64,000 nucleotides of DNA, taken from the NCBI GenBank assembly GCA_051294905.1, contig CM119372.1, forward strand, positions 30,630,001 to 30,694,000, written 5' to 3'. The position numbers and the translations under genes are program-made. The stretch is from Botryllus schlosseri. Taxonomy: Eukaryota. The notes under the pieces are model-generated. The model was not told the DNA's origin. It worked only from the letters and a program-made list of their open reading frames with translations, and did no database searches. Positions 11,519-62,986 of this stretch are shown piece by piece. How positions within the stretch are numbered: position 1 is the stretch's first letter; each line of letters opens with the position of its first letter.

Positions 11519-12115
11519 CATGTTCACAATAAGAGCAGTCTCATGTTCACAATAAGAGCAGTCATGTTCACAATAAGAACAGTCCTATGTTCACAATAAG
11601 AGCAGTCATGTTCACAATAAGAACAGTCTCATGTTCACAATAAGAACAGTCTCATGTTCACAATAAGAGCAGTCATGTTCACAATAAGAGCAGTCTCATG
11701 TTCACAATAAGAGCAGTCATGTTCACAATAAGAACAGTCTCATGTTCACAATAAGAGCAGTCATGTTCACAATAAGAACAGTCTCATGTTCACAATAAGA
11801 GCAGTCATGTTCACAATAAGAGCAGTCTCATGTTCACAATAAGAGCAGTCATGTTCACAATAAGAACAGTCTCATGTTCACAATAAGAGCAGTCATGTTC
11901 ACAATAAGAGCAGTCTCATGTTCACAATAAGAGCAGTCATGTTCACAATAAGAACAGTCTCATGTTCACAATAAGAGCAGTCATGTTCACAATAAGAACA
12001 GTCTCATGTTCACAATAAGAGCAGTTATGTTCACAATAAGAACAGTCTCATGTTCACAATAAGAGCAGTCATGTTCACAATAAGAACAGTCTCATGTTCA
12101 CAATAAGAGCAGTCG
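11519..12115 (+). repeat. Minisatellite of mostly alternating 23/21-bp units ATGTTCACAATAAGA(G/A)CAGTC(TC)
   Basis: More than 25 near-identical tandem units read directly; the same unit forms the element's outer arms at 10858-10970 and 13355-13463 (inverted). Confidence 0.95.
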
Positions 12116-12775
12116 TTGTATTCACAATAATATCAGTCGCAGCATCACCATATCCCCCGGACACGATGTCCGAGAGGCAACATAGTCCGAACACCACCCA
12201 GACATGATATCCGAACACCCCCAGACACGATGTCCGGGTGTCAACGCAGTCTGAACACACTCCTGACACGATGCCCGAACACCCCCAAACACGATGTACG
12301 TACGTAAAGTACGTGCGTACAGGTACAGCGACCCAGTCGAGACCGATAGATTGATGACTCGAAGTTGACTCAAAAAAATTAGCTTTGAGTCACGAGTCAA
12401 TTTACATTTTGATACACAGAGTCAAGTTAAGTCGTGTCTGCGGGGGGGGGGGGTCGGACATCGTGTCTGGGGTGTGATCGGACTGCGTTGACACTCGGAC
12501 ATCATGTCTAGGGCGTGGTGAGTTCGGACATCGTGTATGGATGAGGATGTCTGGGGGGTGTTCGGACATCATGTCTGGGGTGTGTCTGGGGGGGGGGCGT
12601 TCGGACATCGTGTCTGGGGTGTGTTCGGACGGCGTTGACACTCGGACATCGTGTCTGGGGGTGTTCGGGCATCATGTCAGGAGTGTGTTCGAACTGCGTT
12701 GAGACTCGGACATCGTGTCTGGGGGTGTTCGGACATCATGTCTGGGTTGTGTTCGGACTATGTTGCCACTCGGAC

Positions 12776-13290
12776 TAGGGCTGGGCAAAATCGAGTACCT
12801 GAGTGATTCGATTCTGAATAACGTAATAGGCTTCGAGTCGAGTCGATTATTCGAGTATCAGTCATTATGACGTCATAACAGAATGTCATATGTCAAAGAT
12901 CAACTGAGCACTTTATATGCTACCACAAATAATATGATGCCTGTATTCCGTCACATTACAGATACCCCGGTATTTTTCAACCATACGGATTTCTTTGCAC
13001 TTTGTATCAATGTTGCGGGATGATCATAATTTTGGAAATGTGTTATTTTCTGTAACTTTAGTAGCTTGCACTATCTGTTTCGTATGCTGCGATACGTCCA
13101 ATCAAGGTTTCAAGGCATCCACGGAGGAAATTAGTATCGGAATTATAATTCTCATTGACAAATTACCTTTCAGTGGCGAGGAACGTATAATTTCAGTACT
13201 CGAAAAAATCGACTTTTACTACTCGACTCGATTCATTAAAATTAATGCTCGATTCAGATTCGAGTACTCGAATCATTGTGCCCAGCCCTA
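12776..13290. mobile_element. hAT-type MITE nested in the Foldback right arm
   Basis: TIR TAGGGCTGGGCA / TGCCCAGCCCTA; perfect 8-bp TSD actcggac (12768-12775, 13291-13298). Confidence 0.9.
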
Positions 13291-13783
13291 ACTCGGACAT
13301 CGTGTCCGGGGGATATGGTGGTGCTGCGACTGATGTTATTGTGAATAATACAACGACTGCTCTTATTGTGAACATGAGACTGCTCTTATTGTGAACATGA
13401 CTGCTCTTATTGTGAACATGAGACTGCTCTTATTGTGAACAGAATTGCTCTTATTGTGAACATAATCGAACCAACCCTCCTCCATGAATTCGTTTTGCAA
13501 ATGACACTTTACTGCCTCCTAACGGCAATCTAAAGAATTTGTGTGGAGATCGATAGAGGTCCAGAAACAATAAACTTGAAAATACGAAGCCATTTATCAT
13601 GGAAAACTGCATTTATTCATTTTCTGATTGCAAATTATCACGAAATTTGTTATTATGAGAAGTTCAATTCGAGATCTGAACTTTGCATCATGGTCCAAAT
13701 AAATCTCGAATTCGAATATGTTATCCATGTCCGATGAAGACTCAGATTAATTCAAAGTCAGAGAAAGAGATGAAGTTATTAGA

Positions 13784-18300: not shown

Positions 18301-21300
18301 GTTACGTTGTAAGATGAACCCACGATGGAATCATCTCGCTTCACCCACGTGTCTCTGTTTGGTTGAGTTGTTGAATCTGTCATTTTTTATAGCTTCCACT
18401 GCAAAATAATGGAGGTTTTTCTATTGAGATACGTTGGATTCACTGAATTTCATGCGGAATCATTACACCTGTCGTGTGACATGTACGCTTATGGCACCTC
18501 CAGCTACTAAGTTGTCTCGAAGTGCTCTCTTGAAACCACATGCTGTACGGTCAATTACATTTCAAGTGAACAAACAAAAAACAGAGTTGGTTACAGAACA
18601 GTAGTCAGTTTTACTTGCTACTTGAGTGGAGGTAGAAGTAACGCTGTAGTAATTATCAAGGGATATCAAAACTACTTCAAATGAAGTAAAAAGTGAAGGG
18701 TCTGAACACTAATCAAGTAACTAGTTTCAATAAGTAGATTTGGTCGCGTAGTATCATACTTACAACAGTTAACAGGGGTTGGCTGCTTTAAAATTAACGG
18801 GGTGCGTCTTCACAAAATGGCTGATGACACTTCAAATAGGTAGAATCTTCGAAAAGATGTGTGTTAACTAGGATACAGGGGCATTTCACGCGGTACTTAT
18901 GGCAATTCCAATCGTAAAAGTAATGCATTGTATTGATCGCTCAGCTGGTTAATTAGTAGTCTAAAAGCATTACCATTTGAGTTAGTTGTGTAATGTGAAT
19001 GTCGGCAAAACCTACTTGAGTACTCCAAGAAAGTGGAAATACTTCCTTTCTGATCACCTCTGATAGGAACACAATAAAATCTACAATTACTCATGCTCTC
19101 GAGCTACGAGTGTTATTGAGCTAATGCAAATAAAAACGTTGACTCGTCTAGCCATGATCACGCGACTGCAAATATATACAATTGAGTGACATTGAACAAT
19201 ATGTAATCGAACGTACAACCTTCAGTTATGGAATTTGTCCTTGGCGTATTTGTGTGACCAAAGTGTGATCCATTGATGTCATTTCTTTTCAGGACATATC
19301 CTGTCATGGCATTATAGGCCTACCCTATTATGTCATACAATAGATACATTAATATCCTGAGCTGTTTACTAACGAATTTTTTTTTTGAGGTATTCAAATG
19401 GTTTAGTCTATTAGTACTGCTTACTCAAGGGCCAACTCCACATCATATCTTCAAAAATGGAACCTAATTCCATCGCCATTTGTCATTCTGCGTTAGCCTT
19501 GAAGATTTTTCCGGCGATTTCCAATGCCTCGTCCCGATCTACTTCTTCAAACTGCTAACTTCTCATAAAATCCAGTTTCGACTCCTACTTGAAGTAACTT
19601 TGACATGCCACCGTTAGTTGTAATTGCAACATAGCAGACATTTACGGCATTACGACTACTCGCAATTAAAATTCACATAGGCAAGAAGTCCCGATGTTGC
19701 TGACGACGTAACGTAGCGTGTCGACAAGCGGAAATCATCGATGATATTACCAACAATCAAAGCACTTTGTAAACTCATGTATTTGGTCCGCGACCCTATC
19801 GCTATCTACACTATATACTATTCATATATATACTCGAATTCATCATATTTTCGCAGCTGTTGCGAAGTCCGACTGTTACACCAATTCTGGATGCCCGACC
19901 AAGTTTAACATGTCAATTTCAAACCTAGTTCCGGATTTTACTGTAAATTCTCGTACATGCCAGGTGATAACTAAACTTCATTGAAAGGCTACATGAAAAC
20001 GTATTCTTGTGGAAATCCGCAATAGCGTCGACTTCTACAAGGCCGACGAAATTACGAGAGCCTATATACTTTTATCTTGGAAGATCTGCCATCGGCTAGC
20101 TGCTCCTGCTACAGGAAAACACTTTCAGAGCAGCGTGCACCGTACATTCATTTCCCGTTATAGTTATGAACTGTCACGAGACGCAGAGCGCACGCATCGC
20201 GTTACAATCCAGTCAATCGTGTCTGCAAGAAATAACTATCTAAATATCGCGTGATCACCAACTTACTAGTCACGACGTTGCCGTTGTCTGCGGCAATCCT
20301 ATGCTCAGTTCCTCATAAACTTGACGAACCTATTTGACGATAGTAATTGAAAACGAAAGCGGCTATGCATACTGTTCCCTATCGCTAAAAAAGTACTCAC
20401 TAGGTACCGGACTGTGCGCTATTCAGGGTTTTGAATTCTTACACAATTTTTGGTTTTCTAGTTTTGCTCGCGACATTACTACGACAATTGCGCAGATAGT
20501 CAGGCAATGGCGAATTGCGTTTTTGCCGGTTGCGCAAACCGAGATTCCAACGCTTGCCATAGTGATCTCGCGAATAAGCATTTAACTATTCCACCAAGTA
20601 TACTACTTCACTAATTGTGCAGGCGTGAGCAAAGCACTCAAACTCGTCCGGAAACCGATGTCACGATCTGATCTCGTTGTGTTTGTTACAAATTGCTGGC
20701 GCAAACTTGGCGCGGTAATATTTCGTACAGCCACCGGGGCCTACGATAAGTTATCGTACGCCCTGCAGCCACTCATCTCAGGCTGTAATCTGCGATTCCA
20801 GAAAATATTCGGTTTGGGCAAATAATTTTCATATATTGAATGACATCGCCAGCACACCGACGTAGTGAAGGAATGTGGCGTCAAATTCACATAACGTTTG
20901 CGCTGCTCATGTCAAAATAAGTCCATTTTATCGTTCCTCATTAATATTGTAACTCTCAGGCTGGGAGTACTTGCCTCAACTTTCTGTTAAATACATCTGC
21001 ACACCAGGGTTCTTTCTCGGCTTCAATTACGTCTTGGAACATTATCAATTGGGTAGGTAGCGTACGCCGCTGTGTAAATTTCTAAGCCGACTCAATATTA
21101 GCACCCCGGGCACGCATACGCTCCTATATTGAAGTTCCAACGAATATGGACCTATATTTGCAAATCAATAATATCTGAACCAGCGAAAGATGTTTGCAGT
21201 CTACTCGCTATGCGAACGCTGAACTCCGATATAGGTCGCGTGGAACGTACAATAATAACATTCGTACAGTACAACGTAGAGGTACAAAGTTCATAACGTA

Positions 21301-36300: not shown

Positions 36301-39300
36301 GGTGTACTGTGACTTAATGAAACATATGACATTACAATGTCGAAGTCAGAAATCGGTATTTCGTCTCTGGCTACCCTGAAGTATGGCCCGCTTGGCTTAT
36401 AATGCTAACTAGACCCGATTGATATCAGATTTTTGAGCTGACCCTTGGCCCAGAACACTCACTTTTTCCAAACTACTTGGAAATCGCTTCTTCTTCTTCT
36501 ACTGGGTTAGAAATTGACGACATTACTTTTACTTTTACTCGAGCACCAACGATGATTGATGTGTAGGGTTGCCATATTTTGAAGTCCGAAAAAGAGGTCA
36601 CTTGAAAAATTTTAAAAGGCATGATACTGTCGGAGAAAACTGTTGATTTCAAGTAATAGTATTGGGTTGCCTGAAAAAAAAAAGGTCATCAGTTCATTTT
36701 CCTGGTCTCGCTCCCGAAATACCCGTCGGGCTGTAATTTTTGTTCAATTTCTTGCCGACCTTGGCATTCGCTGCGTCAGAATGCAATTTTTTCTCACATT
36801 TTAAAACCTTTTCTAGAAAAAAGGACTTTTGGGCGTCCTTCAAGGACACTTTTAATTTCTTTAAATAAGAGGACACATGGTTATGGTAACCCTACTTCTG
36901 TGACCATTGACCAGCTCTGCCGGTAAGCTATATGAAATATATCAATATTACCAGTGCAGCTTTTGCAGATTATAATTCTCTGACACCCTCCTACCATAAA
37001 TCTTCGAAGCGTGATTTTGATTCGATATAATCAGTGAACCGATGAGTCGGACGGATCTAATGCCAACACATTGCTTTTCAAGGTCGGCCTTGATTTGAAT
37101 GAGCGTTGCTATGGAAACTTTTTTTGCTTGGACGATCAGAAACTAACGAGACGTGATGACCCTATGGATGAAGTTGTGGCCGTGGACACTGAGACCAATT
37201 ATAAAGGGTGAGTTTTAAAGCAAGAGTATTTATTGAAGATGGAGCGTGTGGGATATTGATACAGGGATCTGTAATGAATACGACCTACCTCCACAAGCTG
37301 TCAAAATGGTTAGGGTCACTGGTGCTACTGAAGTAGCTGATGTAGAGAAGTCAACGTCGCCACTTGAGTAGATGTTGAAGTAGTGCCGAAATTTCGACGA
37401 GGTTCCACTGCAAATAGCAGTAGCTATATTCGAGGCATGGCAAAACTACTTCAATTTGAATTAGAAAACCGAAGGTTTGAAAAGTATTCAAGTGAGTCAT
37501 TCCAAAAAGGTAGATTTGCTCAAGGGGTCATGTAGTTTTTGGCAGATGATCCCAGACGACTGCATTCAAAATTGCCATACGGTATGCATCTTTGTGACTA
37601 ACAAAAAAAAAATAATGACACTACAAATTGGGGCAATCTTTGAAATGATGTTCAGCTACTGGGATACAGGGGCTATTTCACGCGGTTCCCTAAACAATTT
37701 TCATAAAAGCCGTTTTAACACGGTATCACAAAAGTAATTTCCACCTTTTAAAATTTGGGGTGTAAGAAGTAAGTAATTTTACCTAACAAGTGTCAAGTAG
37801 CTGTGGTAATAGTCCAAAAATATAGTCACTTTAGTAAGTAACGGTAGCATATGTATTCAAATCCTACTTGAGTACATGAAAAAAGTCAAAGCTATTCATT
37901 AATGACGACCTCTATCAAAAAGTAATTGCCTTGGGGCCAGTATTGCGGGTTACGGAGCAATGTACTTGCAGGTGCTGTCGGTATTAAAGCTCATTTCGCT
38001 TACTTATTTCAAGACCAAAACCAAAGTCTGCTATACCTGTACCAAGTACTGAATGTGTCATGTTTTAGAATTTCTACTTCTACTTTTGCAGTTATGAAAG
38101 CGAAATTAGTTTAACTAGGTGATTTTGAGATAATTTCGCATCAATTGCAAGCGGCAAACAAACGGTAGCCGTCTCGGTAGCATGTAGATTTAGAATGGCG
38201 TGATCTGTACCACCAGCTGCTGTTCTGCATTAGTTGCAGTGGTGTATCTTGAAAACTTGAATCTTTTGAAGAATCTTCCTAGGCTGGCTACGAATGACTT
38301 TTTATAGCTACTAGTTTGGGTACATTTCAAATTTCTCCATTTCCAGTTTTTCTGCATGCCTAGGGGACCTCGACTTTGACTAGGTAGCGGCAGTTTTGAC
38401 CCCTTCACACGATGACAATTATTAAGGAATACATTTCGCTTGCCATGTAATTCAAGAGTTTACAATACTGTAGTACTAAATTAGTATGAATATCCCGCAG
38501 GCTTATGTATTGGGGAGAAACGCCGTTATCGTTTGCCGCATGCTTGAGCTTGGGAGAGGCAATGGGATGGCTTTTAGATGCTGGTGCCGATCTCTATGCT
38601 ACCGATTCCAATGGTAACAACGTTCTGCATATGATGGTCATCCATAAAAACAAGGTAAATATTTTAGCTCTCTTGAAATACGAACCAGGAGACGTTATAC
38701 AGGCATTTGACACACACGTAATTCTCTGGAAGTTTCTTAAGTCAATACAGATTTTCACTTGAGACAAGTCAAGTCACACTTATTATCCAAGTGGCTTGGA
38801 TCAAGATGACTGTAGTGTTGTGAAGTACAGTTTGAAATTTAGCCTAGTAGCAGTTAAATCTGTGGTTCATATTTAAAATCTTACATAGCCTGTCAGATTT
38901 CAGCCGTGATAATGAATACACAACGATATCATAAATTACAGGATATGTTCAACATTGCATATCGCGCAGCCAAAAAAGACCCGGAGAAATGCAACCAGCT
39001 ATTGGAACATAGAAACAGGTCAGTGGGTGTTGCGGTGTTCCTCTTCGTCACAGAGCAATGTGTGTCAGGGTATTGGCAGCCATGAGGAAATAATTTTCGA
39101 TGGTCATTACGTTTTAGGCTATGGCTCAATCACAACATCATCACCAGGGCAAGTTTTTGCAAATTTTGCAATTTTTTTACAGCTTCCGAGAGCTTCCTAA
39201 ATACTCAGAAGCTATGAAGTATGATGTTTTAAGCTGTTTGAAGGAATCTCTCTTTGATTTGCTCACAAAAGAGCAATATGATCGACTGACTAGCTGCATC

Positions 39301-42300
39301 TCAATGACATCTATGGTGCATGGCATGATGGCATGCAAGGTAAAAGTCCAACAACCGCAGCCATGCACGACAGTGCCTGAACTATATGTAGGCTGTATAG
39401 ATTGCTCGATTGATTCACTGTCGTTCAAATTTGAGGTCCTTCCCCGTTTGACGGACGCCCAGGCGAGACAATATCACTGGGTCACCCTTTCAAGCTATTC
39501 ATTTTGTTCAAGTCACCTGCACCGAGTTTTGTTGCAATGCCATGGGTCAAGTTTGCAGACCTAGTGGGTTTGGGGTGTGGTGTTTGACTTGTTGTATGGG
39601 TTATCGCTTTGCTGTTTGGGATCAACTTTTAACCGCATTTCAATCATCTTATTTACATTTTTCCATCAGGCAAGAATACACGCCTTTGACGTTGGCGGCG
39701 AAATTGGCCAACAAGGAGATGTTTGATCACATCCTGGAATTGAAGGCCGTTGAAATCTGGTCTTACGGCAGTGTCGTTTGCAAGGAGTATCCTCTCGTAG
39801 ATTTGGATTCGGTGAGTTCTTGCGGTTTCGTGCCGGTTTCTAGCTTGTGGCTCTCGATTTCAATGAATGCCAGGCAATCAGGATGTTTGTTGTTTCGGGC
39901 AAGACATTTCATTCATCCACTGCTACTATGTAATGAGGTTACGGAGGTATCGTTTAGTCTCTAATCTCGAGTTGCAGTTAGGTATCACTGATATATCAAA
40001 CCCTAGTCTAACCTTGCTTTGACCTGACCGCTTTCCTAATCCGTGAGTACAGTAGGTCAGTAACCAAATACTCAAGAACGTTTTCCCTACCACTTGCTCA
40101 AGTCTCTTTATTTTTTGACTACTCTCACCTAGGACCGTAACAACACTTTGTCAGGCCCCCCGAAAACGCTGCTCTTTGTCCCCTCAGGGTGATAAACTAA
40201 ACTTCTTGGGGGTGTACGTTGTCACAATGATACTCTCCTTGTTCTAGGTGCTTAAGGAGCTGCTGTTATCTCATCGCGCGCAGCGCTAAATAAGTCCAAT
40301 TCATTGATAAATTTGGTGAATGAAATGAGAATTGCATTTATTACAATCAAATTTTTAATTGGCGTCTTTGAACATTTAAAGCACACTTAGTACTTATACA
40401 TCTGCTGGCGGGCCTGGATATTGGCCAATGCCGCAATGCCTACCGCTAGAAATTATGCGTTTTTTCTTGGGGGAGGGATACGCATACTAACAGCCTTATA
40501 TCGTCTTCAGAGCCACTGTTTTAGTGCTTTATAACTGTATTCAACCGGCCAACCATCGTATTATTGCCAATTCCATTGTTTGCGAATTAAAATGTAGCTA
40601 AAATTGAACCCTTATTATCTGTAATATAAAGTAATTTACTATTATATATATATATAGGCTTGATAATGTAAGAATTCAAATGAAAAACAAGGGCATGCAT
40701 TTTGAGGTAATATTTTGGAATGATTTGACTGCTACGACCCACACACGATCTGAATGTTTGAATACGGCTTGCGACGAAAATTCAGGTTGAAACCCCTGTA
40801 CTAGATAGACCTTAAATGATGTGAAGTAGGAAGTTGTTTTGGTATATGTTTCCATCACTTTTGGAGCGGAGTTTTTATATCGACTGTGAAAAGCAGCCCT
40901 GAATGATGGTTACTGAATATGTTTTTGAAAATCGCTGGAATTCTTGATCCCTTTAGTCATTTTGCATCAGTCGATATTGAAATACTGTCCACAGTCGACT
41001 ACTACTAAAAGTATGCAAAGTCTCGATCAAGCCTACCTTTTAAAAGTACTTACTTGAGTTCTTTTCATGTCTTCATTTTCTACTTCAGTGGTTCTCAAAC
41101 TGGGGGGGGGGGGGGGGGGGGGGGAGATGCGTGAAGCTGCGGTCAACTATAAATTTACTTCCAATTCATCGTTATTGCTCTGTGTATAGTCCGAATTTCA
41201 GAATTGAGAATCAAATCATCAACAGTCATAACATTCCATGCTGGTTGCATATTGCGATATGACGACAATGGGGACGCAAAATGTTTCACTATCATAAAGG
41301 GGGGCGTGTCTAAAAAAGCTTGAGAACCACTGTTCTACTTTCAAGTGAAGTAGTTTTGGTATGCCCCTGATCTAACTCCAACAAAATTTTATCCCGAAAT
41401 AAAGCTAACCTAACCGTAGCCCCCAACCCAAGCTAAGATAACCTCACGCTAGGCTAGGCTAGGCTCCTAAAATATCCTGGTATATTTTTACTAGCTCATC
41501 TGTATTGCCGTCAGAATAGAACCGTGATTCAACTCTACCATACAGATCAATGCGAGAGACGGTTCGATAAATCGTGACTCGGCGTTGCACATTGTACTCT
41601 CCGAGGAAAGTGTGGACCATTTGGACATGTTGGACGGGCTGCTGTACCAACTACTACACGACAAGTGGAAATCGTATGCAAAGATCCGATTCTACAAACG
41701 GTCTTTGGCATTTTTTCTCTACATGATACTGTTTGTTACTGCGGTATATCTGCACCCGGGAAATGTAAGCACCTACACTACTGAACATTTATTTTGATTG
41801 TTATTGAAGACATTGTACTTTGTAAAATTGGTCCAATCGAAAACGTATTTGCATCAGATGAGTGAAATTGTGATGACAATAATACAATGTAGCCCTATGT
41901 ATGATGGTAGTACAATATGCGACTACAAAGAAAATCTCGCTACTAGTACCCTGCATTGACTTTGTGAGAATCTGGGTAGCATTTTACTACATGTTTTGGA
42001 TGCTGTGATAAGACCAATCCCGTGTTTCAAGGCTTCCACAGTGGGAAAAAGTTTTGAAACTATAATTTTTGTTGAAAATACATCTCTTGGAAAGGGGCGG
42101 ATAATTTCAGTATCAAAAAAATCTTCTCACAAATAATTACAACAAACAAATCAAACAATAAAATAAACTGAATTGTACTGAATGCAATATGGAATATTCC
42201 AGATTCGAGTACTCGAATCCTAGTACACGCCCTAGTTCCGAGGACGCAGCCAGCGGCAATTGAACTCGGGCTCTGGTTATCGACTGGTTTCTGCGAGACC

Positions 42301-45300
42301 AGAGCAGTAGCCACTGATCCACATCAGCTGTCTCTCATTACTCGATTTGGCTTCGAGTACACAAGTTATTGCTTCCAGCCGTAGAAATAAGCGATTTTAA
42401 AAGCAGTTACTTAGTGATTCATGTACTAATTCTTACCCTCACATCTACAGCCGGTGACCATCACGAGCCCAGCATTAAATCTCTATAGTAGGGGCTGTTA
42501 TCTGCCAACGTTTACATCCGCTGCGGACTATGCTAGGACCGTTATCGAAAGCATCGTTTTTCTGTGGGCCGGCGTATTCTTGTATTTCTCTGTGACTGAA
42601 ATTCGTTTCCAGGCAAGATCTTTATATTTTTAATGGGTTTGACGTTGAAAATATTGTTTTTTATACAATTTTGACAGGGTTTAAGGCTCTTTCTAGCCAC
42701 TTTGTACGATGCGCCCACCAAAGCCGGATTTCTCTTCTCTTGTTTGTTGGTTATCATCGTTTTACCTCTTCGAATGACGTGCGCGATCGGAGGCGAAGAC
42801 ATCTTGATATCTCTCAGCATCTGCTGCTGTATACCGTATTGCCTCTTCTTTTGCAGGTAAATATTCAAATTCTGGCAGAAGTGGTGGGACCTGTCTTTTT
42901 CTCCTGGCAAACCAATGTTTCCTGTAAGGATATCAGCAAATGGGAAAGATCGCTATGATTGATTGGCTGGTATCGAATCTTACAATAGCCTCATGTGTCA
43001 AAGGGCCGAAACTACCTTTGGTAGAAGTACAAAATGATTAGTACGTAATTTGTTCAAGTATGAAGGAATAAAAATAACTTGAGTTTTGGACTTGTTCTTG
43101 TCCTTGGCCTTCTACAACTGTCCACCTTGCTAATAAAAATGAAGAATGGGAAGCAGTGTTAGGAATATGTGCAATTTCAATTATATATACGCTCTCTTAT
43201 TTGATCTCATTTCATGCTGGTGGCGTCATATTTCGAGATACGATTGTTGATATACAATATTCTTTCCAATTCTCTACTAGTTGCTAACGATTACCCCTGA
43301 CCGAAAATATTCGAGTTCATTTCAATATGAATATACTATTCAATTGAAAATTGAAGTTCTGTACCTCCAAGAAGCTATTTAAATACGGTATATATCTGTG
43401 GTCTAGAATTTGTCATTTTGAAAGTTTCACTTTCAATTGTATCCTAAAACTTCAATCTACTTGGCAAGAGCTGAGAAGGAAAGTAGTTATTCTCCTCATG
43501 AAGACTTGCTATATTTTGTACTTTTCCGCAATCATCCCGAATCCAACTATCACATCGGTATAGCTTGACTTCTGTTGACGTATTTTTGTTCTTATTTGGT
43601 TACAGAGGCTTCAAATTGGTCGGTCCTTTCATTGTGATGATCTACAATATGATAGCCGGTGATCTGTTACGATTTCTCATTATCTACCTCATCTTTCTCC
43701 TTGGATTTTCACAAGGTAACTATGCTGGTTTGAATTCATATACATGCCGAGAAAAATAATTACAGTAACACTTAATTAATTAATGAAATAGTGTATTTTA
43801 CAGCTCATTTGAATCCATTAATCCGTTATTCCTTAATCCGTTAAATCCGTTTTGCGGAGTTGCATTTTGATTTTGGAATCCCTCTCATCACTGCTAAAGT
43901 TACACAAAAATGATAAATTGAGATATAGCTCAAATTCCGGCGTTATATCAAGTTCGGGATGTCATTTTTACTAGGGATGGTCAGTAATAAAGTGCTTCTA
44001 CTTTTTTGGCATACTCTAGTACAGGGGCGGGCAACTTCTTCAATCGGCGGGCCAGATATGGGAAAATGAAGTGCTTGGCGGGCCGGATTCCTGAATGGAT
44101 ACATTAAACGCGTGTTTATCCACCTATACAAGGATTAATCGTATTTAATGTGAGCTTTGAGTTTGAAGCATAGATACCCAAAAGCAGTATTCAATGAATT
44201 TATTAAAGTAACATTTGTCAATAACTGTTGAAGTCAATGAGACATCTGTGGTCGATCAAAGTTGTGTACAGGTTCTTTGAACTCTGGCTGCATGTCAGAT
44301 ACAAAGAAGGCAGAGAAGTATTATTCGTGTCCGAATTTAATGGAAGAATAAACTACAGTCACTATAATTTGACGTAGTATGCAAGTAGTGGAGAATTGCG
44401 GAAGACTGTGACCGACGGCCATATTATCGTTTAAAACAAAAACTGTCTGCAGCCCGCTCAAAATCACGTCGCGGGCCGGATGTTGCCCGTCCCTGCTTTA
44501 GTAGGACACTACTTACTCAGTGAATATGTTTTCAGACTACTTCCTATCCTGCTGAATGGTTTTCAAAAGTAAAATCACTTACTTTTTGACAGCTTGGATT
44601 ATGTAAAGTATTTTAACTGGAGGACTTTTCAGACCTTCCGTTTTCTACCCCTAATTTTGGCATATCTAGAAAATTGCTACTGTTTGTTGTAATTGTGAAG
44701 AGAGAGGTAGGCAGATTCTCCAATATAGAAAATGAAGTACTTGTCGTGCCAGATTCCTGAATCGATAAATCAATCCACCTATGCTAGGAAGCAATTGTAT
44801 TTAATGTAAACTTAAGTTTAAAGCAGAGAGACCAAAAACAGTATTCAATGAATTTAATAACGTAATGTACTTAAATAGCTGTTGAAGTCAATGAGGCATC
44901 TGTGGTCGATCAAAGTTGTGAACAAGTTCTTTGAACTCTGGCTGCATGTCAGACGTTGAATAGAAACACTTAGTACTGATTGCACATGAACATCAGTTAG
45001 AATTGGAACGTAGCTTTGTCAAGTTAATGTTCATGATCGAAAATGTTTGCTGGCAAATGTCCGCAGCCCTGTACAGAACAAGTAGTTTCAACTTTCAACA
45101 ATCACTATTATTTGTGTCCGTTCAGCATTTAATTATTACACTAATCAGCCTAAATTTCTCTTTGAATCATTGATATATTTTTCCAGCTTGAGGCAAGGCA
45201 TGAGATTGAATAGATAGCTAAGCCTCCAACACTTAGGGATTTATTTTGGATGCAAACTCCAACCCGCGGCCCATTAGTGTTGCACCTGAGGGAATGTACC

Positions 45301-48300
45301 ACTACACTGCTGTCTATGTTTGGTACTTATTTCACGCAGTACCTTACAACTTCTCTCGCATCAGATCTGAGCTGTAAGCCATCTCTTGATGTACAGCTAT
45401 ATAAATACCGAAGTCATGATGAGTATAATTCTCTTTTTCAGCGATGTTTGTTGTTTTCCGAGGCACTGAAAACGAATTCTTTAGCGACCAGATCCAATCG
45501 ACCATGGGCATGTTCATTATGACAATGGGCGAATTCCAAGACATCTACAACACGTTTGACACTTCGAGAAATCCGACTATTCCAAAGGTAACAGTAATAG
45601 TCTTGTCGGTTCATGATAGGTTTGTTAATGAACTTACTGGTACTGCTGCGCATACTCAGTAGATACTCTGTACTTGGCCTACTAATTTTGATGTTTAGTT
45701 TGTGAGCCACCGCTTCAAACCACTATAGCAGTCCCAAGTCAGAGTCCTTTCTACTTTTCTGCTTATAATCTCGACGAAATTTGGAGTAAAATATTCACTA
45801 AAACTATTATCCTTGTCCGGGTTGCAATCTATTCACAAGGTCCCGAGTCACAAGTCAATATTTCCATATTTTACAAGAGTCGGACTCGAGTCATTGCGAC
45901 CCTAATCCGTGCCATGCATCGTGCTGTGACAAATGAAAATGATTGACATGATTTTGAATAGCCAAGATTAAGGGAGTTATGGAAAGTGTGACATTTCCAC
46001 GCCATTCACCGAATTCCACACAAGACTGATTTACAATTCCGATTCGGAGCCTGAATTTGAAAATTAAGTTGACCCTGTCGCCAGAGATGATCAATGACCA
46101 AGTACTTCTACGTTTTCTACTTTTATCTCTACTTAACCGTTTTTAGGAAAACTGCTTAATTTTTACAATTAGGGTTTTGCAGTTTAGACAGTAGTTTTGG
46201 GGTATGTTTCCATCATGTCCATGAATCAAAATGTCATAACTGGGGCAAGTTTTTGTTGCAGTCAAATCCATGGAAAGTTGCATTTATTTTTCCTAAAAGT
46301 TGCACTAAAAAGGTACATTTATGGACAAGTTTCTTGAAATTATTAAGGAATGAGAAACTCAAATCGATCCGTGTCGAAGGCACTGTAGCAAAACTCAGTG
46401 TTGGTGACTTCGACAAAATCAATAGCCTGACAAAATTGACCCAGTGAAAATATCATTTTCGGCGGTCTACCCTGAATGTACGTCAAATCAGAAAGGGCCT
46501 CAGATTTAAACGACAGTGAAATAATCAAGCAATCTATTTACATATGGTACCAAATATTTCCAGTGAAAAGTTAGTTGCACGAAAAATCGAAAATACTTGC
46601 CAGAAAGTTGCATGAAAAATCGAAAAAAACTTGCAAAAAGTTGCATGAAAAATCGAAAAAGCTGCAACAAGTTGCTTGAAAAGATGGAGAAAAGTTGCGA
46701 TATAAGATTCCTCCAAACAGCTTAAAACACCACACTACTTAACTTCCGAGTATTTAGGGAGCTGCCAGAAGCTGTAAAAAAAGTTGTAAAAGTTGCAAAA
46801 TTTGAGTTCAAATTTACAATGTTCTGTCTAATTCTACTTCTGTGCCAGCAATGAATATTGAACCACCTCTACCGGTAACTATCATGAGTCCAAACGGTGT
46901 CTTTTCGACCGCTTTCTAACAATAAGAAATAATTTTCAGATTCTCTTCTTCTTCTACATCGTTTTCGGGTCCGTGCTGCTCTTGAACATGTTAATCGCCA
47001 TGATGGGGAACACTTTCAACCGAATCGCCCAAACCAAAAAGGAATGGCAGAGACAGTGGGCAAAGATTGTTCTTGTAAGTCCGATTTATTTTGTCGACTT
47101 GATTCAGAAACTGAAACGCAAAGTGGAAAGTAAAATTTGCCATCAAACGCTGTCTTTAATACAGCCAGAACTGACATCGTTAAAAGCACATAGTTTGCCA
47201 ATAAACCAACATTTTCTGCTGATATTAAAATGTGGCATGTTTCAACCGGAACTTCTAATTAGTGGCAGTAATTTGAAATAGCTAACCCGTGTAAATTTCG
47301 GATAGTTACGAACAGACTCTAGTTGGGAAAAAAACTGGTGCATTCAGTCCACGTCCATGTAATTGTAGTTCATGAATCACGACTTTTCAGCATATTTACC
47401 AAGAAATGAACTTTAATGGTCCTTGTAAATCAATCGAATAGTACTGCTTTGTTGAATACCTTTCCGTAATACTATCGTGCAGCACATATAAATGTAATCC
47501 GTGGTCTTTCTCGAACAACTCAATTTAGTTGGGCGACAAAGTTCATAACTGCTAAGCCAGCTTTGTTTGTCGCCCCAGAATCGTGCTACGAATATTTTGA
47601 TACGGTACGCTTAATGTTGAAACCTGACTCAGGGGAAGAGATAGACTAGATGACCGTCTGGTTGTATCGTCCCTTTTCTGTCCATACCGATTATTTGAAA
47701 TTTTCAAGTTTTCCCGGTGAGACGAATCTAATAAATGATCTATCTGTCTATCTGACTGGATCTCTCTCTCTTTCTCTCGTTCACTCATTGCTCGAGAATG
47801 TATGGAATCTTTGTCCGGCTTCAATTTCCGTTGACACTTGACTCAATGAAGTCCGAAGTAATGCAATTTCGATCTACAGGTCATCGAGCAGACGGTATCG
47901 CCGCCTAAAAGAAAGAAAAAACAACGAGGCTATTCTCAACCATACGGTGCCGATGGCAAGGATAGATCGCTAGTTATCAGAGCCAGGAAAAAGGTAGGAT
48001 CTATGTACATAGCTTTTCCAAAGCACTGCCTCTCTTAGAGTCAAGGATGGCTCATACCCAGAGTGTGTTTTTTCCCTACTTGCAGTACTTACTCAAGTGG
48101 GTATGCTTATAGATTATTTCCACTTCTACTTGAACAGTCGTTTTGTCAACTCACATTCTTACTTGGAGTAGAAAGTAGTTTTGGAATGAGTTTGCATCAC
48201 TTTTGTGCGTGAAAAAGCTCCTGTATCACCGTGACTGAATATGTTTTCAAACATTGTGCCTATTTGTAGTGTCGCCGGTACTTTTGCATTCGTTGCATCT

Positions 48301-50404: not shown

Positions 50405-50419
50405 GAGGCATGTCTGTCG

Positions 50420-51297
50420 CAGCACAAACATATCCCAGACACGATGTCCGAGTGACAACATAGTCCTAACACCCCAGACATGATGTCCGAACACACCTTG
50501 GGCACGATGTCCGAGTTGCAAAACTGTCCGAACGCACCCAAGACATCATGTCCGAACACACCCCAGCCACGATGTCCGAGGGGCAAAACAGTCCGAACTC
50601 ACCCCAGATACGATGTCCGAATGGCAACACAGTCCGCACATTAGGGCTGTTCAAAAATAACTTTTTTTTTCGGATTCCAGCCATTCAGTGATTAAATTGT
50701 CAGGTTACCTTAAAAAATGCTGCACACCAAATTTGGTTCAATTCTAACAAGTATAGGGCTCCGCGGATCAAATTAAAATTTTAAATTTATACAGGAAAAT
50801 TGAAATAAAAAAAATTTACAAATTTTTCTGTCAACCCCATGAAATTGTTGAGCTGTCTTCAGAGACGACGCAAAAAAAATTTGACTCAATTCGGACTAGT
50901 AGAAGTGGAGTTATTGGAGTTTTTCGTTGATAATTCTCCAATTATCCTTGATTGGTGGATAATCCGAGAATTATCAACGAAAAACTCCAATAACTCCACT
51001 TCTACTAGTCCGAATTGAGTCAAATTTTTTTTGCATCGTCTCTGAAGACCGCTCAACAATTTCATGGGGTTGAGAGAAAAATTTGAATTTTTTTTTTTAA
51101 ATTTTACGTAGTAAATTAAAAATTTTAATTGGCTCTGCGGACGCTTAGACATGTTCGAATTGAACCAAATTTGGTGTGCAGCCTTTGTTGTGGCAACCTG
51201 ACAATTTAATCAGTGAATGGCTGGAATCAGGAAAAAAAAGTTATTTTTGAACAGCCCTACCGCACATACCCCAGACTCGATGTCCGAACACCCCCTA
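50420..51297 (+). repeat. Fragment of the Foldback GACACGATGTCCGA tandem-repeat arm, split by a MITE
   Basis: Same ~22-25-bp units as 11000-11500 and 12140-12770. Confidence 0.8.
50642..51259. mobile_element. Fully palindromic hAT-type MITE (618 bp)
   Basis: TAGGGCTGTTCAAAAATAAC...GTTATTTTTGAACAGCCCTA; arms complementary up to a centre near 50950; perfect TSD ccgcacat (50634-50641, 51260-51267). Confidence 0.92.
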
Positions 51298-52314: not shown

Positions 52315-53542
52315 CAGGGGTTCTCAAAGGGTGGGCCATGGCCCACTGGTGGGCCACAGGAGCATTTGAGGTGGGCCACAAAGGTATTTAGAAAATTTTA
52401 GAATTAATGTAAGTTTAGTTTTATCTGTTATGCTAATCGCTAAAAATATATTCATATAATCGAATTATACGTAGGCTACATAAAGCTTTTCATCCGACTC
52501 TGATGAGACGTAGTGGCACGTATAGAGTCACAATGTACGCGTCCAAAACGGCGGCTTTTTCCACTGGCTATGACAACCTACGGCTAACAGCAACTAAAAT
52601 AATTTCGAGTATACAATAACTGGAAGGTAATGCTGAAGTAACCAAGCAATCCGGCAGGGGCTCATGTCGTATGCCGTTGAAAGGTGTGTGCAATAAACTC
52701 GGAATGAAGTGTAATTGATGTATAAATTTACTGTACTTATAGGCAAGTCGTATTATTGTAGGATAAAAATAGCCATAATTGCAAATTATTAGCAACTTCT
52801 GGTGGAGGTATACTGCACCACCGAAACGAATCGTAATGGATTGAGGATTTAGCGGAGCGCATTAATCTTTGGAGTCGGTTTAAAATGTCCGTCCTGACAT
52901 TATTGTACGTAATGCAAGAGTCACATGAATTGATTGTATCACTGGATTGAATATTCTAACATCGTAACTTCAATTGGTTTGGTACAAGATGTGGTATTGA
53001 ATGCATATTAAAATATCTTTCTCCACTTCTCTGTATAGTACCCCATTCACCAATGAATTGTTTGAAGCTGACCCAGAATGATTATATTATTCCCCACAAT
53101 AGTGGAACTAAAATCCCAATTACACAGTGGATGCGTGGATTTGATTATTATCTTTCGCTACGCGAATGGAGCAGCGGACGAGCTCATAATATACACGGGA
53201 GTTTTAGCCTATATGATCTACCAAGGCCGTAACTGCTGCACCCAAACTCCCAATTGCGGGACCTCAAAGGGGCCCAAGATTATTTTGTTGGTCGTTTTTT
53301 GGAGGATATTTATTCGACTTAAAAATTTTCGTCGCGCTTCGCGCGATTTCATGGGCCGAAAGGTCTACATTTAATGATCATCAGTAAATTAAGAGAAAAA
53401 TGCGCACATTTTACAGAAATAGGCATATCGGCGCCGTCGATTACCAAGCATTGAACAGGATTATGACTCCAAGATAAGTGGGCCACAGCACATTTTCAAA
53501 CCGGAAAATGGGCCACGGTCAAGAAAGGGCTGAGAACCCCTG
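52315..53542 (+). mobile_element. 1.2-kb hAT non-autonomous element (copy 1)
   Basis: CAGGGGTTCTCA / TGAGAACCCCTG; approximate TSD ttgtaagc / atgtaagc; inverted copy at 59068-60236. Confidence 0.85.
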
Positions 53543-54106
53543 TATGTAAGCAAATGGCTTGAATGCCACAATTTCACGGTGAAATTGACATTGGAGAATA
53601 TAAAATAAAAGTAAATATTTGAATGCAAACCGAGAATGTTAGTAAACTGTTTCATGATATCATCATCTCATCACCTATCTCAGTATGGAACACAGTTAAC
53701 GTTAGCACAGATACACCGGCTTTTGCGTGAAATCCGCAATGCGTTAGGTAGGCCAAAGTGTCAGATCAGCGCACCGCACATCTCTACCATACTCGACCTT
53801 GATAATGAAATTACTGCCCTAATCATTGAGTGTCAACCTTGAGACTTGGCACAGCGTTCGATACTAAAATCAAGACATACCGTGCAAAAGCTCATGGCGG
53901 ATCTAGGTAATAAGGAGCATCGTTAAAATCGATAGAGACCAATACCGGCTTTGCGTAAAATCTGTTAGCGATAAATGACGAGTCAGCTCTCACTCGACTT
54001 AGGAAACGAAATTACCACTAACACAGTTCAGTGACAAACTTAAAACTTGGTACAGCGTTCGATACTAACATTAAGACTTACCGTTCCAAACTGGGCTTTG
54101 GAGCAG

Positions 54107-56135: not shown

Positions 56136-57464
56136 CCGTAAATTTGCATTGCTCCAGCTCCGGCTCCGGAGCTTTTATCTCTCATAAATTAGCTCCGGCT
56201 CCAGCTCCGGAGCCGCATTATTACCACTGCTCCGGCTCCAGCTCCGGCTCCGGCTCTGAAAACTATCGAAGGTGTCTGTCTATATCAGGGGTAGGCAACC
56301 CGCGGCCTGCGGGCCATATGTGGCCCGCGAGAAGGTTTTGAGTAGCCCGCGAGCTGATTTCCCATTATATTATCGAAATTCTGTTATATTTTCGAAATTG
56401 AATTGCTCAGATTGTGATTTTGCATGGCCAACCAAAAATATAATTCGTATATCCGCGACACTTTGGGTGTTGATGACTAAACTGTCAGTTACGACGCATT
56501 GGCAGATCCAGGGTCCAGCAGTCACATTTTTAGTAAATCGTAGTACATTACAATAAACTAAAAATGTAGTAAAATGTTTCTTCACGCTTCGCGTGTTTAA
56601 ATGTCACGCGATTTCTTTCTCTGTATAGCCTACCCCCACCTGAAAATGAATAAACGCCTGATTTAGCCGATTGAGTCTAACTATATTAGCAATTATAGGA
56701 GAGAAAGTATATTCGCGTTTGCGCTCGCAGAAAGATCGTCGACGATGAATGTAGGCACAAAATGATTGTCGTATATTAGCAGCCCGATTAAAGAACAATC
56801 ACGAAAGAACGAGTATTTGCTCATCCGATTCATAGCAACGATGAGATGGAATTTTTCGGCTCGTGCTCGTCATGTCGACATGTGCAATGAAATCACGTTT
56901 TTATCCTCTCTCCCATTTCGCGTAATACATAGTGATCATTATTTTCGAACCGTATACAATTGGCCAACAAGGCTGTGCTGATGATGAAATTGCGGGTATG
57001 CCGAATACCCACAATATTCGCAGGCATATTTCGCATACCGAGGTTCGGCACAAATGTATCAAAATTGAAAATTGAACATACGACTGCTCTGCTGTTAAAT
57101 CTCCAGGAACATGGTTTTGGTTAGTCGGAAAAGGTAGCGCCAAAGAGGAAAATATTCTTAATTTCGCGAAGGCCTGCTGTTGAATTATGTGAACTCAGCA
57201 GATATGGTTGTTGCATATATAATGGCATCTTATGAAACAAGTCGGAGCCGGAGCTACCGCTCAAATAACTGGCTCCAGCTCCGGCTCCGGCTCCGGCTGA
57301 ATTTTATGTAGAGCTCCGGCTCCAGCTCCAGCTCCGGTAAAAATGTACGGCTCCGGGGCTCCGGCTCCGGGCTCCGGCTCCGGCTCCAAAGCCCTGGTTC
57401 CAAATGTCATGACCGATCTCGGTATGGAACATCATCAAAATCAATGGATACCAATACCGGCTTT

Positions 57465-57693
57465 AGAGGTGTCGGAGGTTTATTTGGGCTCCTCGTCGCC
57501 GATCCCGCTGTAAATACAGCGCCTTGATAAAGCCCAGAAAAAGAGAGAGCCGAACTCTGGAAAGATGGCAGCTAAAGACCAGAAAAACGAAGCAAGACCG
57601 CGAAAGACATTGTGTTAATGCAATTAATATGCTGGGCGCAAATGACCATATAGGCGATAAGCGCCAATGTTGTGAATAAAACAAACAAACAAA
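57465..57693 (+). mobile_element. 5'-truncated retroposon (SINE/LINE 3' end) with an (AAAC)n tail
   Basis: AATAAAACAAACAAACAAA tail; 9-bp TSD accggcttt (57456-57464, 57694-57702); related diverged piece at ~57775-57842. Confidence 0.7.
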
Positions 57694-57842
57694 ACCGGCT
57701 TTGGAGTAAAATCTGTTTGCGATACATGATGGATCAGCACACACTTAACTTCGGAAACGGAATTACTACCCTAAGTGTTGGAGGTTTACCTAGGCTCCTC
57801 CTCGCCACCTCATCCGCGTCAGCGGTGTCTTACAAAAGCCTA

Positions 57843-58017
57843 AAAATAGTACATTGAACGTTCTCTCATTCGAAATTTCATGCTGGTGACGTCATATTTT
57901 GTGATGCGATTGTTGATATACAATGTTCTTTCCAATTCTCTACTAGTTGCTGACGATTACCCCTGACGAGTGTCAGCCGAAAATATTCGGGTTCATTTCA
58001 ATATGAATATACTATTT
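57843..58017 (+). ncRNA. Hammerhead-repeat family copy 3, intact minimal type I hammerhead (57949-57994)
   Basis: Identical to copy 1 over the ribozyme: CTGACGA 57963-57969, GAAA 57979-57982, predicted cleavage after C57988; 9-bp direct repeat aaaagccta (57834-57842, 58018-58026). Confidence 0.8.
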
Positions 58018-59067
58018 AAAAGCCTAGAGGTGGGCCGTGCTATAAGTCGGCAGTTACGGAAAATAAGAAGAATAGCGGCCTGGTGTAAATGACCATAGTA
58101 GTCGACAAACACCATGAATACCCCAAAACAAACAAAATAAACCTAATCTTTAAGTATATAGAAACCCTGAAACGTGGGGCAGTGTTAAATACCATAATCA
58201 CGACATAACATAGCCTACCAAGTTTCAAGAATTATCATGGTGTGAAACACCATCAAAATCGACCTATACCAGCAAATGTTGACTAAACGCATATGACGGT
58301 AACCGAGTTCAGATATAGATACGATTGTTACATCACGCCTTAGGGGCGACAGGGCTATGTTGCCCCACTTGCTCGGTAATTTTATGAATAGGAGAGAGTA
58401 AATCACCGTTTCTTTATTGTGCGCGGCTTTGACAGAATAGACAGTAATAGCTTGTTATGAGCGCTACCGGGGCATGCCCCGGCTAGGCATTCGCAAAGCG
58501 AAAACACAGAAGAAAATTCTATTTTCGCAGAGACTTCGCTATATATGGGCATTTACAAGCGAAAGGACAAGAAGAATGCGATTTTCGCTGTGATTTCGGT
58601 ATATATAGATTGCTGTGCGTCTATAAATGGTAAACAAATGGTATTGAACAGAATTTTAGGTGGGGCAATGCCCCAGTTGCCCTATAGGACGAGCCGCCAC
58701 TGAGATAAACTGCTAAAACAGTGACTTTACTGACGCAGTAAGGTCGGCATAATGCTATGATTGATTGTTTGAGTGAGTGGTAATCTGATATCTTTGCCTA
58801 TGCATTGTGACGAAAACAAGCGACTAAAGGATACTCGAGACGTCGAAATTTGTTTCAATATTATTGTATCGCGATTTGGGTTTCTCTGAAGGCCGATTTT
58901 TGTGTCATAAATATATTCTCCATATAACCAGTATATACCGGTTTCTTACTGACGTTTTCAATTCTGCAAATAACTATTTTTGGTCCATAACACTGTGAAC
59001 TCACTGTGCACTTTTTGCCTTCCCGGAATTTGGTGTGGCAGCGACTTGTTACTAATGGTGACTAGAG

Positions 59068-60236
59068 CAGGGGTTCTCAGGCCTTTCTTGTCCGTGGCAC
59101 ATTTTCCGGTTTGAAAATGTGCTGTGGCCCACCTCTTATCTTAGAGTCATAATCCCGTTCAATGCGTGTTAATCGACGGCGCCGATATGCCTATTTCTCT
59201 AAAATATGCGCATTTTACTCTTAATTTACTGATGACGTTTAAATCTAGACTTCACGACGAAAATTGCCAGGTTAAATAAATATCCTCCAACAAACGACCA
59301 ACGAAATAATCTTGGGCCTCTTCGAGCTCCACCAATTTGGGGTTTGGGTGCGGCAGTTCCGACCCTGGTAGATCATTGACTAAATCTCCTGTGTATATTA
59401 TGATCGTCCGCTTCTCCATTCGCGTCGCGAAACACATTGATCAAATTCCCGCATCCACTATGTGTGATTGGGGTTTTAGTTCCACTATTGTGGGGAATAA
59501 TATAATCATTCTGTATCAGCTTAAAACAATTCATTAATGAGAAGTGGAGAAATAGGTTTTTAACATGTATGCTGTACAATGTACCGTACCGTATGTCTTG
59601 TACCAAACCAACTGAAGTTGCAAAGTCAGAATTTTCAATCCAATGATACAATCAATTCATGTGACTCTTACGTATGATTTCCAGGTCGGACATTTTAAAC
59701 CGACTCCAAAGATTAATGCGCTCCGTTATAAATCCTCAATCCAGTACGATTCGTTGCGGTGGTGCAGTATACCTTCACCAGAAGTTGCTTATAATTTGCA
59801 ATTATGGCTATTTTTATCTTACAATAATACGACCTGCCGAAGTACTGTAAATCCATACATCAATTACACCTCATTCCAAGTTTATTGCTCACCCCTTTCA
59901 ACGGCATATGACCGTGCCCGAGTAGGCTACTTGGTTACTTCAGCATTACCTTCCAGTTATATATACGCGAAATTGTTTTAGTTGCTGTTAGTCATAGGTT
60001 GACATAACCAGTGGATAAAGCCGCCGTTTGACCCTCCCGTTTTCTACTTGTACATGCTGACTCCATGTGCCACTACGTCTCAACAGAGTCGGATGAAAAG
60101 GTTTATGAATATATTTTTAGCGTTTAACATAACAAAAAACTTACATCAATTCAAAAATTCTATAAATAGCTTTGTGCCCCCCCTCAAATGCCTCTGTGGC
60201 CCACCAGTGGGCCATGGCCCACCCTTTGAGAACCTG
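59068..60236 (-). mobile_element. 1.2-kb hAT non-autonomous element (copy 2, inverted)
   Basis: Reverse-complement alignment to 52315-53542 along its length, with many substitutions. Confidence 0.85.
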
Positions 60237-61080: not shown

Positions 61081-62986
61081 CAGTGGTTCTCAATCGCCGG
61101 TGCCGGTCCGCGGCGACTTTTCTGCTGGTCCGCCAGTTATATTAAAATTATACCTTAATTTCAAGATGCAAGATGCTAGAGGCTTTGCCCTTGATAAAAT
61201 AAATAAAACTTCAAATTTTGAACTGATTCAGAACTTCATGAGGTAACATTAGGCCTCGAAGCATGTTCGATTTGAATTGAAGTTCAAGCCGTCGCTGGTG
61301 ACGAGATATACAAGCGGACTCGCTAAACCGCGCAGTTTACACCATCATCGTTTTCGATTCATTCATTTTGTGGATGACCAGGTATCGCTGTTGCTAGCTG
61401 TTTGCTCCTTTGAAAAGCTTATAAAAGCGCGGATTTCACAATATCGAAGGAGTCCGGTAGCCAGGGATCAGTATCGTCCACTTCAGCAACAGACATACGC
61501 ACATCGATCGGCGTAACGCTAGCTAGAAATGTACATCGCGCGTAGTGTGATGTAATTTTGAAATTTTCGAACAGTCTATTTAAATTAATGAAGTATAAAG
61601 CGGGCGCGTTTCGATCAAAAGTTGCATCTTTAAACGAACTAATAGCGAGTCCAGCTTCCTCAAAACGCATGTCACGATATTCCTTCGTTAAAACATATGA
61701 ACGAATTTGACGGTTCTCGCGTGGGCGAGAAACGTATTGACGCGGTTCAACAACTGAATTCGTACGAGCCGGGTCAAAGGTAGGCGGTGCATTCCGGGGA
61801 ATCTCGGCACTCGCGCCCCTTGCTGTCTCATCATTATCCTCGTCGTCTGTCTGAGCAACGACCCGATCTATTTCTACAATTGGGTTATCAACATTTTCAT
61901 TCCCATGATGTAGGCCTATATCGATTTGTTCATTATCACCGGATAGGCCGAATCCAGTAGGAGGTTCATCCCTGTGGTATCTGAGATCATAATTTTGAGC
62001 AATTTTTTTAGCCTCACTCGCATCTGAATCGCTATTGGTTGCCATAATAACAAAAACCGCAATAAATGTACGAGTATAGTTGAAATGGTGAATGGGCGAC
62101 ATTATATAACACGGAAAATTACACTCAAAGGTATGTGCGACTGCCAGCCGACAAACAAATCCAGAAATCGTGTAGAAGGAGTAAATACCGGATGTGTCTT
62201 GCTGTCCTGGTGTTTTCAGTGAATTCCCGTATCATCGCAAGTGAATGCTAAATCCGACGATGGAGCGGCATGGAGTCTTCCGTTTGAACTAAGTCCCTCA
62301 CTCGGGGCACCTTGCGGTGAGAGGAGCTGTCTGTCTGATAGTCTGGCAGTAACTGATACGAGCGCTCCTGAGTGAGATCTTGACTGGTAGACGACAATAT
62401 TGCCTTCTCCAGATATATTGTACGGATGGTTAGTAATTCAAGCAGTAGATTGTACAGGGTACATGAGTCTCGTATCTTATCTGAGTCAATAATACGATAT
62501 GCACAATGTGATATACCAGCGATATGTCACGTGATATAGCATTATACCATAACAGATAGGAGAGAAGGGAGCCAGGGCTCCCAAACGTCTATAGTGGTGG
62601 ACAAGGTGCTTGACCCTAATCCGAAACGCTTCTTCTCTCGATTTGTCGAAGAGAAAGGTATTATTAGAAATGGTGTGGCCGGTAAATCCTGGCCTTCCGC
62701 GCGACCGATAGTAATCGTCTCTCGGCGGTAGCAGGCTTATCTGGGCGAGGCAATTTTACCTGATTCAGCTGAAAAACTACCGTAAAATCACTCAGGCCTA
62801 CATACCACCATGAACATATTTAATTACAAACAAAGCTCTCGAAATGCCACTCTAGTACCATACTTGCAAATAAACGGTTGCATACTTTACATTTTGGGTT
62901 TATTTCAATTTTTGAAGGTCCACCGGCCGCTAAATAATTTTTGAGATGCCACCGATCCGTGAGGTGTAAAAGGTTGCAAACCACTG
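61081..62986. mobile_element. hAT element enclosing a Gypsy gag fragment
   Basis: CAGTGGTTCTCAA / TTGCAAACCACTG; perfect TSD atttagac (61073-61080, 62987-62994). Confidence 0.85.
61419..62102 (-). pseudogene. Gypsy gag-like ORF (N-terminal capsid-like domain), truncated
   Basis: TFDRNAPALYFINLNRLFENFKITSHYARCTFL...DSFDIVKSALL*AF resembles the Gypsy Gag motif PPFW--DP-LWF--E-QF---IT...Y--LK-AL---F; no pol follows. Confidence 0.6.

Follow-up and report, generated by a model that had tools for sequence, protein, structure and literature searches.

The 175-bp insert at positions 57843-58017 (+ strand) of the window (the whole stretch of Botryllus schlosseri DNA analysed here, 64,000 nucleotides of ~41% GC) is the pLTR-like 3' end of a repeat family, in its short or tail-less form, and a Penelope-type retro-mechanism is the likely means by which this family has moved. 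An earlier, sequence-only reading had favored the same mechanism in view of an inverted match at the start of the insert; we come to it by other features, namely 5' truncation, TSDs of varied length, a common 3' motif, an optional tail of 39 nt, a start codon (ATG) that follows the ribozyme, and the architecture of helix III. Membership of the family in the Penelope-like elements (PLEs) is probable.

Copy 2 and the repeat that it interrupts

The insert, hereafter copy 2, is bounded on its left by the 9-bp TSD AAAAGCCTA at 57834-57842 (7 bp when the terminal AA of the element is left out of the duplication) and on its right by the same letters at 58018-58026 (both +); this is the sole exact direct repeat of at least six letters at both insert ends. 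The last two A's of copy 2 overlap the right TSD, as would be expected from primer-template pairing. Positions 57945-58019 are identical in 75/75 letters to 6855-6929 of copy 1, which lies 51,090 bp away. Both the duplication and the identity at ~51 kb had been claimed earlier and both hold, but the recent activity proposed along with them is only partly sustained: it is plausible and the clean TSDs suggest young copies, but the 75/75 identity does no more than bound the divergence at <=3.9% (below ~4%), and copy 2 deviates from the family majority at 57861 and 57906 (among the 40 variant rows listed out of 232).

The surrounding host is an older, high-copy retroposon-like repeat with an A/CAA-rich 3' end that is split by the insert; its approximate edges, 57775-58150 (+), are set by loose ends behind 58127 and a joint from 57774 to 58159. 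When the two flanks of copy 2 are aligned separately, each maps to the same paralogue (57443-57696), where one AAAGCC[C/T]A is common to both alignments. We have also aligned three public contig sets and one raw RNA run (four runs in all) to positions 57500-58400, a target of 901 bases that includes host repeats and that attracted 129,486, 41,805 and 7,256 contigs and 10,582 reads. The uninterrupted host is found in all four runs as a skip of 184 with nine letters fitting on either side, supported by 13, 8 and 1 contigs and 64 reads (among the 15 joints listed out of 685). Since the host repeat is high-copy (88% likeness), these are paralogous rather than orthologous empty sites; they prove the insertion and fix the TSD, but not polymorphism. 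Insertion into an older retroposon fragment, as originally read, is thereby confirmed, and empty sites had been named beforehand as a check.

The nesting here has three levels (57690-58340), the host retroposon itself interrupting another repeat: joints from 57774 to 58159/58160 occur in contigs of three runs and in 2 reads (again among the 15 of 685 joints listed), and there is a paralogue near 53940-54018. Elsewhere the window has long imperfect palindromes of fold-back or MITE-like form at 3240-5629 (87.5% over 2.4 kb) and 50642-51259 (89% over 0.6 kb). Minisatellite arrays with a 44-bp period lie inside an inverted-repeat frame at 10843-13478, with a related piece at 50410-50621. A 1.2-kb repeat is present as two inverted copies, 80% identical (52319-53542 and 59068-60234), whose frames have no Pfam match.

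Copies, ends and the inverted 12-mer

The window contains three copies of the family and no fourth below E 1 by nhmmer. Copy 1 is a 5'-truncated insert of 72 bp (6858-6929, +) which, together with its 13-bp TSD (6845-6857 and 6930-6942), spans 6845-6942, and its 5' joint has 3 nt of microhomology. It is situated 512 bp past the stop of an SF3A1/Prp21-like gene on the opposite strand, possibly in the 3' UTR; this gene (7441-9717, -) is a long single frame, apparently intronless, with Surp, PRP21 and ubiquitin domains. The call of copy 2 as the second copy was right in that copies 1 and 2 are real, but it overlooked a third at 43189-43382 (+), 85% identical, with a 10-nt deletion through the ribozyme core and a 39-nt tail (43344-43382). 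Copy 3 probably lies within an intron of what we take for a TRPV-like channel (38490-47278, +), recognizable by ankyrin and ion-transport exon pieces. Its possible 5-bp TSD, ATACG (43187-91 and 43383-87), is weak; we have set aside the alternative duplications, 7-bp TATATAT and 8-bp TTTCAATT, as the 5-bp one abuts the shared end motif, and none of them is secure. An inverted match at the left flank of copy 3 is likely to be due to chance in AT-rich DNA. With insert lengths of 72, 175 and ~194 bp and TSDs of 13, 9 and possibly 5 bp, the three copies display 5' truncation with variable TSDs.

All three copies share the 3' end motif CTATTTAA (58012-58019, +, in copy 2, its last 2 nt within the right TSD). 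Copy 3 also carries an earlier CTATTCAA 39 nt before its end, so that two CTATTYAA ends bracket the 39-nt tail, which is absent from copies 1 and 2; the distal end is seen in copy 3 only. Loose ends behind 58016 are found in 4/4 runs (590, 732, 258 and 310 records, with an agreement of 0.53-0.56, among the 24 of 2340 loose ends listed), and their consensus, printed for two runs, matches the copy 3 tail in 28 of 30 letters. Because these loose ends match the continuation in copy 3, the family has a short end plus an optional tail. Its 39 nt fall inside the 30-40 nt given for PLE tails in the accessible parts of PMC8557442 and PMC11167929. In the tailed form the proximal CTATTYAA motif is within a predicted long stem-loop.

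An ATG at 58003-58005 (+), 14 nt past the predicted cut, would start the ORF of the element, and in copy 3 its frame runs through the tail (20 codons, with one stop). Rotifer pLTRs carry 12-22 codons of ORF (PMC3846280, in the portion available). The 40-aa read-through of copy 3 has no homologue in a peptide search, a test of little power. None of the 149 window frames of >=75 aa has an RT or GIY-YIG domain by Pfam, which is what one would expect if the copies are truncated; no reverse transcriptase is linked to the family here. One 318-aa frame (705-1661, +) has a DDE_Tnp_4 domain and is presumably Harbinger/HARBI1-like, whereas a 270-aa frame at 61419-62231 (-) has no Pfam match. The window also holds an apparently intronless spinster-like MFS gene (16767-18386, -), whose best named match is Styela clava (64%), followed by Ciona, Clavelina and Phallusia.

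Three copies in 64 kb lead us to infer an abundant ascidian repeat family, alignment depth being no measure of copy number. That depth is highest over 57965-57995 and falls 5'-ward in 4/4 runs, to 5-13% of that level at 57861; part of the fall may come from the indel of copy 2 near 57872 rather than from truncation. Exact-pattern scans gave no match in viral contigs and none in metagenome contigs with the 3' end; five loci with the 20-nt core pattern are all GC-rich with unrelated flanks, and we judge them to be chance. No published description of the family was found in a literature search whose reach stopped short of Lunse et al. on small PLE hammerhead variants.

The insert starts with one extra A (57843) followed by a 12-mer (57844-57855, +) that, as had been reported from the letters, is complementary in 11 of 12 positions to its own end (58006-58017). 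The match was chosen post hoc, yet it is beyond chance: an equal inverted match arose in only 3, 8 and 11 of 4000 trials on shuffling the first 14, 20 and 30 nt, and is reached by 22 of 63,980 window 14-mers. The 12-mer could have arisen during the insertion of copy 2, as a small part of the 3' end copied in inverted orientation through fold-back or twin priming, which would suit its position one base inside the left TSD, the 8-bp palindrome GAACGTTC that follows at 57856-57863 and the fact that inverted 5' copies are typical of PLEs (PMC8557442, in the text accessible). This is nevertheless unlikely. The 12-mer segment is apparently common to many family copies: arithmetic back from the 31-bp bin 57841-57871, which is no direct view of copies, implies a depth over 57843-57857 of 99, 82, 89 and 133% of that at 57861 for the four runs under a flat model and of 64, 65, 41 and 89% under a linear rise. 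Moreover, in two contigs from other copies, which diverge from copy 2 by ~10%, the alignment begins at 57840 and is preceded by unrelated sequence (among the 24 of 2340 pieces listed). A fresh inversion should be 12/12, but there is one mismatch although the ribozyme part is 75/75, and GAACGTTC needs T57861, where C makes up 81-94% of the contig depth. Since the segment appears to recur in other copies, the 12-mer probably belongs, as a fixed feature, to the master sequence of one subfamily or more, and was inherited rather than made as an inversion at the copy 2 site; copy 3 is without it, its homology beginning at the equivalent of 57858. The appeal to the inverted terminal copies of Penelope thus stands insofar as inverted 5' copies are typical of PLEs, but the published cases, in the available text of PMC3846280 and PMC8557442, are whole inverted pLTRs (of ~180-210 bp in the former), not 12-mers.

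Among the 15 of 685 joints listed none changes strand, but one runs head to tail from 58016 to 57907 (3 contigs, 1/4 runs) and fits a partial tandem. This go-back joint, taken with the type I hammerhead, a similar size, a low GC content and TSDs of >4 bp (accessible part of PMC7229834), might recommend a non-LTR retrozyme, a small unit without coding capacity that multiplies by way of circular RNA cut by its hammerhead and that occurs as tandem repeats. It is a very improbable identity for copies that, in the window, are all single (0/3 tandem) and all stop at the same motif, 30 nt beyond the ribozyme, with a helix II that is not the canonical 4 bp; moreover the joint is confined to those 3 contigs of one run. 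The inverted termini could also belong to a MITE-type DNA transposon, with 12-bp TIRs, a 9-bp duplication and an incidental hammerhead, a pattern that we would label Mutator-like. The 12-bp inverted termini do seem to be a family feature and the 9-bp TSD is clean, but this origin is hardly credible: the sequence-only reading had named a fixed TSD length with true TIRs as the mark of a DNA transposon, and what we find instead is a copy 1 that lacks the left end yet has its own TSD, of 13 versus 9 bp, many copies that continue past the right 'TIR' into the tail, and a copy 3 whose last TIR position is C, not T.

For the Penelope-type mechanism that we prefer, the copies, their ends, the duplications, the tail and the motif are observed, and the enzyme, the priming chemistry and the ribozyme activity are inferred. 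The insert would be the 5'-truncated, retrotransposed 3' end (part of a pseudo-LTR) of a Penelope-like family, or of a non-autonomous derivative, in this stolidobranch ascidian. An endonuclease would nick AT-rich DNA, and the nick would prime reverse transcription at either of two internal starts, spaced by 39 nt and each marked by CTATT(C/T)AA, the choice of site giving either tail-less copies (1 and 2) or the tailed copy 3. Synthesis would end prematurely and the joint would form at a short microhomology, which would leave staggered duplications that differ in length. The hammerhead would be carried along because of its place just upstream of the start sites, and the 12-bp inverted match would have been carried by the master, perhaps as an old fixed inversion or as a chance internal feature, instead of being made at the copy 2 site. 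The anole element that has been reconstituted contains two internal sites at which reverse transcription starts, and the stretch between them is the genomic tail (PMC11167929, in the portion available); the two CTATTYAA motifs 39 nt apart fit this two-start model.

The hammerhead motif and a candidate pseudoknot

Positions 57959-57992 (+) match the descriptor of a type I hammerhead with predicted activity. On the same strand it comprises a 4-bp helix I, ACCC/GGGU (57959-62/57989-92); the core CUGACGA (57963-57969); a helix II of the single pair G57970-C57978 (G10.1-C11.1) with a 7-nt loop II (57971-77); GAAA (57979-82); the palindrome AAUAUU of helix III (57982-87); and a predicted cut after C17, which is C57988. 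Within the window the strict descriptor picks out copies 1 and 2 and nothing else, and it has no match in 60 shuffles of 64 kb. Just before the ribozyme is a pyrimidine-rich, splice-acceptor-like stretch ending in TAG (57929-57946, +), at whose AG copy 1 begins; it may have the role suggested by analogy with D. virilis (in the accessible text of PMC4209133).

Earlier this hammerhead had been called intact, and with regard to the descriptor, the core and helix III, it is: the conserved core, G10.1-C11.1 and the palindromic helix III/loop 3 of the minimal PLE hammerhead are all present. However, where that type has a helix II of several pairs with a preceding bulged base, copy 2 has 1 bp and no bulge, and Rfam finds no hammerhead, with no match at gathering score in the window and, on 57700-58200, a single chance snoRNA match (E 7.2). 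In the fold of lowest energy, loop II pairs with the core, which is thereby hidden in a hairpin (-10.5 kcal/mol, whereas the bare hammerhead skeleton has +5.2). Although such folds into hairpins without a hammerhead, along with 5' truncation and variable TSDs that suit any target-primed retroposon, might speak for a SINE- or LINE-type 3' end with fortuitous hammerhead-like letters and a real structure of three short hairpins, this is the least credible origin of all, given the absence of full-descriptor matches in the shuffles and of a poly(A) or simple-repeat tail, the optional 39-nt tail being instead a PLE signature.

A candidate pseudoknot of 7 bp would pair loop II with GCUGACG (57949-57955, +), its 5' strand, which lies 3 nt before helix I (duplex -10.6 kcal/mol). 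Loop II is fully complementary to this strand, and such a partner occurs in 751 of 100,000 shuffles and in 60 of 2133 window 30-mers. At -7.8, the predicted pseudoknot helix outweighs the hairpin that buries the core (-5.4), and the copy 2 hammerhead may fold through it. A small duplication could also have produced the pairing as a by-product, the upstream strand repeating the CUGACG of the core. In one RNA run the starts and ends of reads do not pile up at the predicted cut, and both orientations are equal; the test has little power, and with the anole ribozyme, which is active, there was no cut-site pile-up either (PMC11167929, accessible part). Our literature search, which did not extend to Lunse et al. 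on small PLE hammerhead variants, turned up no pseudoknotted PLE hammerhead. A more ambitious model has two parts, which we propose jointly and tentatively, doubting that both are true. Ascidian PLEs would use a distinct hammerhead class with a 1-bp helix II and a built-in switch, loop II hiding the catalytic core in the off state and pairing, in the on state, with a strand that starts 2 nt past the splice acceptor; and the copy-2 family would be a defined non-autonomous unit of ~175 bp with short inverted ends, spread by Penelope enzymes to very high copy number.

Relation to known elements and ribozymes

Thousands of dispersed, truncated PLE ends bearing hammerheads have already been recognized in animal genomes, and the copy 2 insertion itself is therefore ordinary; it is the candidate pseudoknot that is the unusual trait. 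A family with a possible pseudoknot switch, many natural variants for covariation, and two start sites with one 8-nt motif should be a convenient system for both ribozyme function and the origin of the tail.

The family is much like the pLTRs of EN+ PLEs (Penelope/Poseidon and Neptune), as described in the accessible portions of PMC3846280, PMC8557442 and PMC11167929, in its 5' truncation, its variable TSD near 9 bp, its optional 3' tail of 30-40 nt, the presence, near the 3' end, of a hammerhead with an ATG close by, a possible partial tandem and its insertion into other repeats. The pLTRs of PMC3846280 (same limits) are ~190-220 bp long, with 8-10-bp TSDs and the first ORF codons. Unlike the EN+ PLEs, the copy-2 family has no linked RT/GIY-YIG ORF and no long inverted pLTR, only the 12-bp inverted match that is seemingly family-fixed.

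Minimal and near-minimal hammerheads of PLEs (Cervera and De la Pena 2014, PMC4209133, as far as its available text goes) resemble copy 2 in being type I with CUGANGA and GAAA boxes, G10.1-C11.1 and a short helix I, and mostly occur as single dispersed motifs, as do the window copies. The D. virilis variant, in the same source, shares a helix III of two pairs closed by a palindromic loop of 2 nt, as well as an acceptor-like AG, the D. virilis intron ending just before helix I. Copy 2 differs from them in its helix II (1 bp versus >=3 bp in 56/56 PLE-type rows of Fig. S3 in that paper), in having no bulged base before it and in a loop II that is fully complementary to the 5' extension. PLE hammerheads cleave poorly in vitro and are dispensable for insertion in the one reconstituted system (accessible part of PMC11167929).

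With the non-LTR retrozymes of PMC7229834 (available portion) copy 2 has in common a short, low-GC unit, a type I hammerhead and TSDs, but those are tandem repeats with canonical ribozymes and circular RNA, and neither tandems nor a canonical helix II are seen in the three window copies. A very short helix II combined with a pseudoknot between the helix I and helix II arms is found in bacterial and metagenomic hammerheads (Perreault et al. 2011, PMC3088659); in the accessible text, pseudoknots are reported for all three types, and a one-pair helix II with a pseudoknot was tested in one metagenomic hammerhead. These are mostly prokaryotic and have a stable helix III, whereas copy 2 is an animal repeat with a palindromic helix III and a pseudoknot that is a candidate only.
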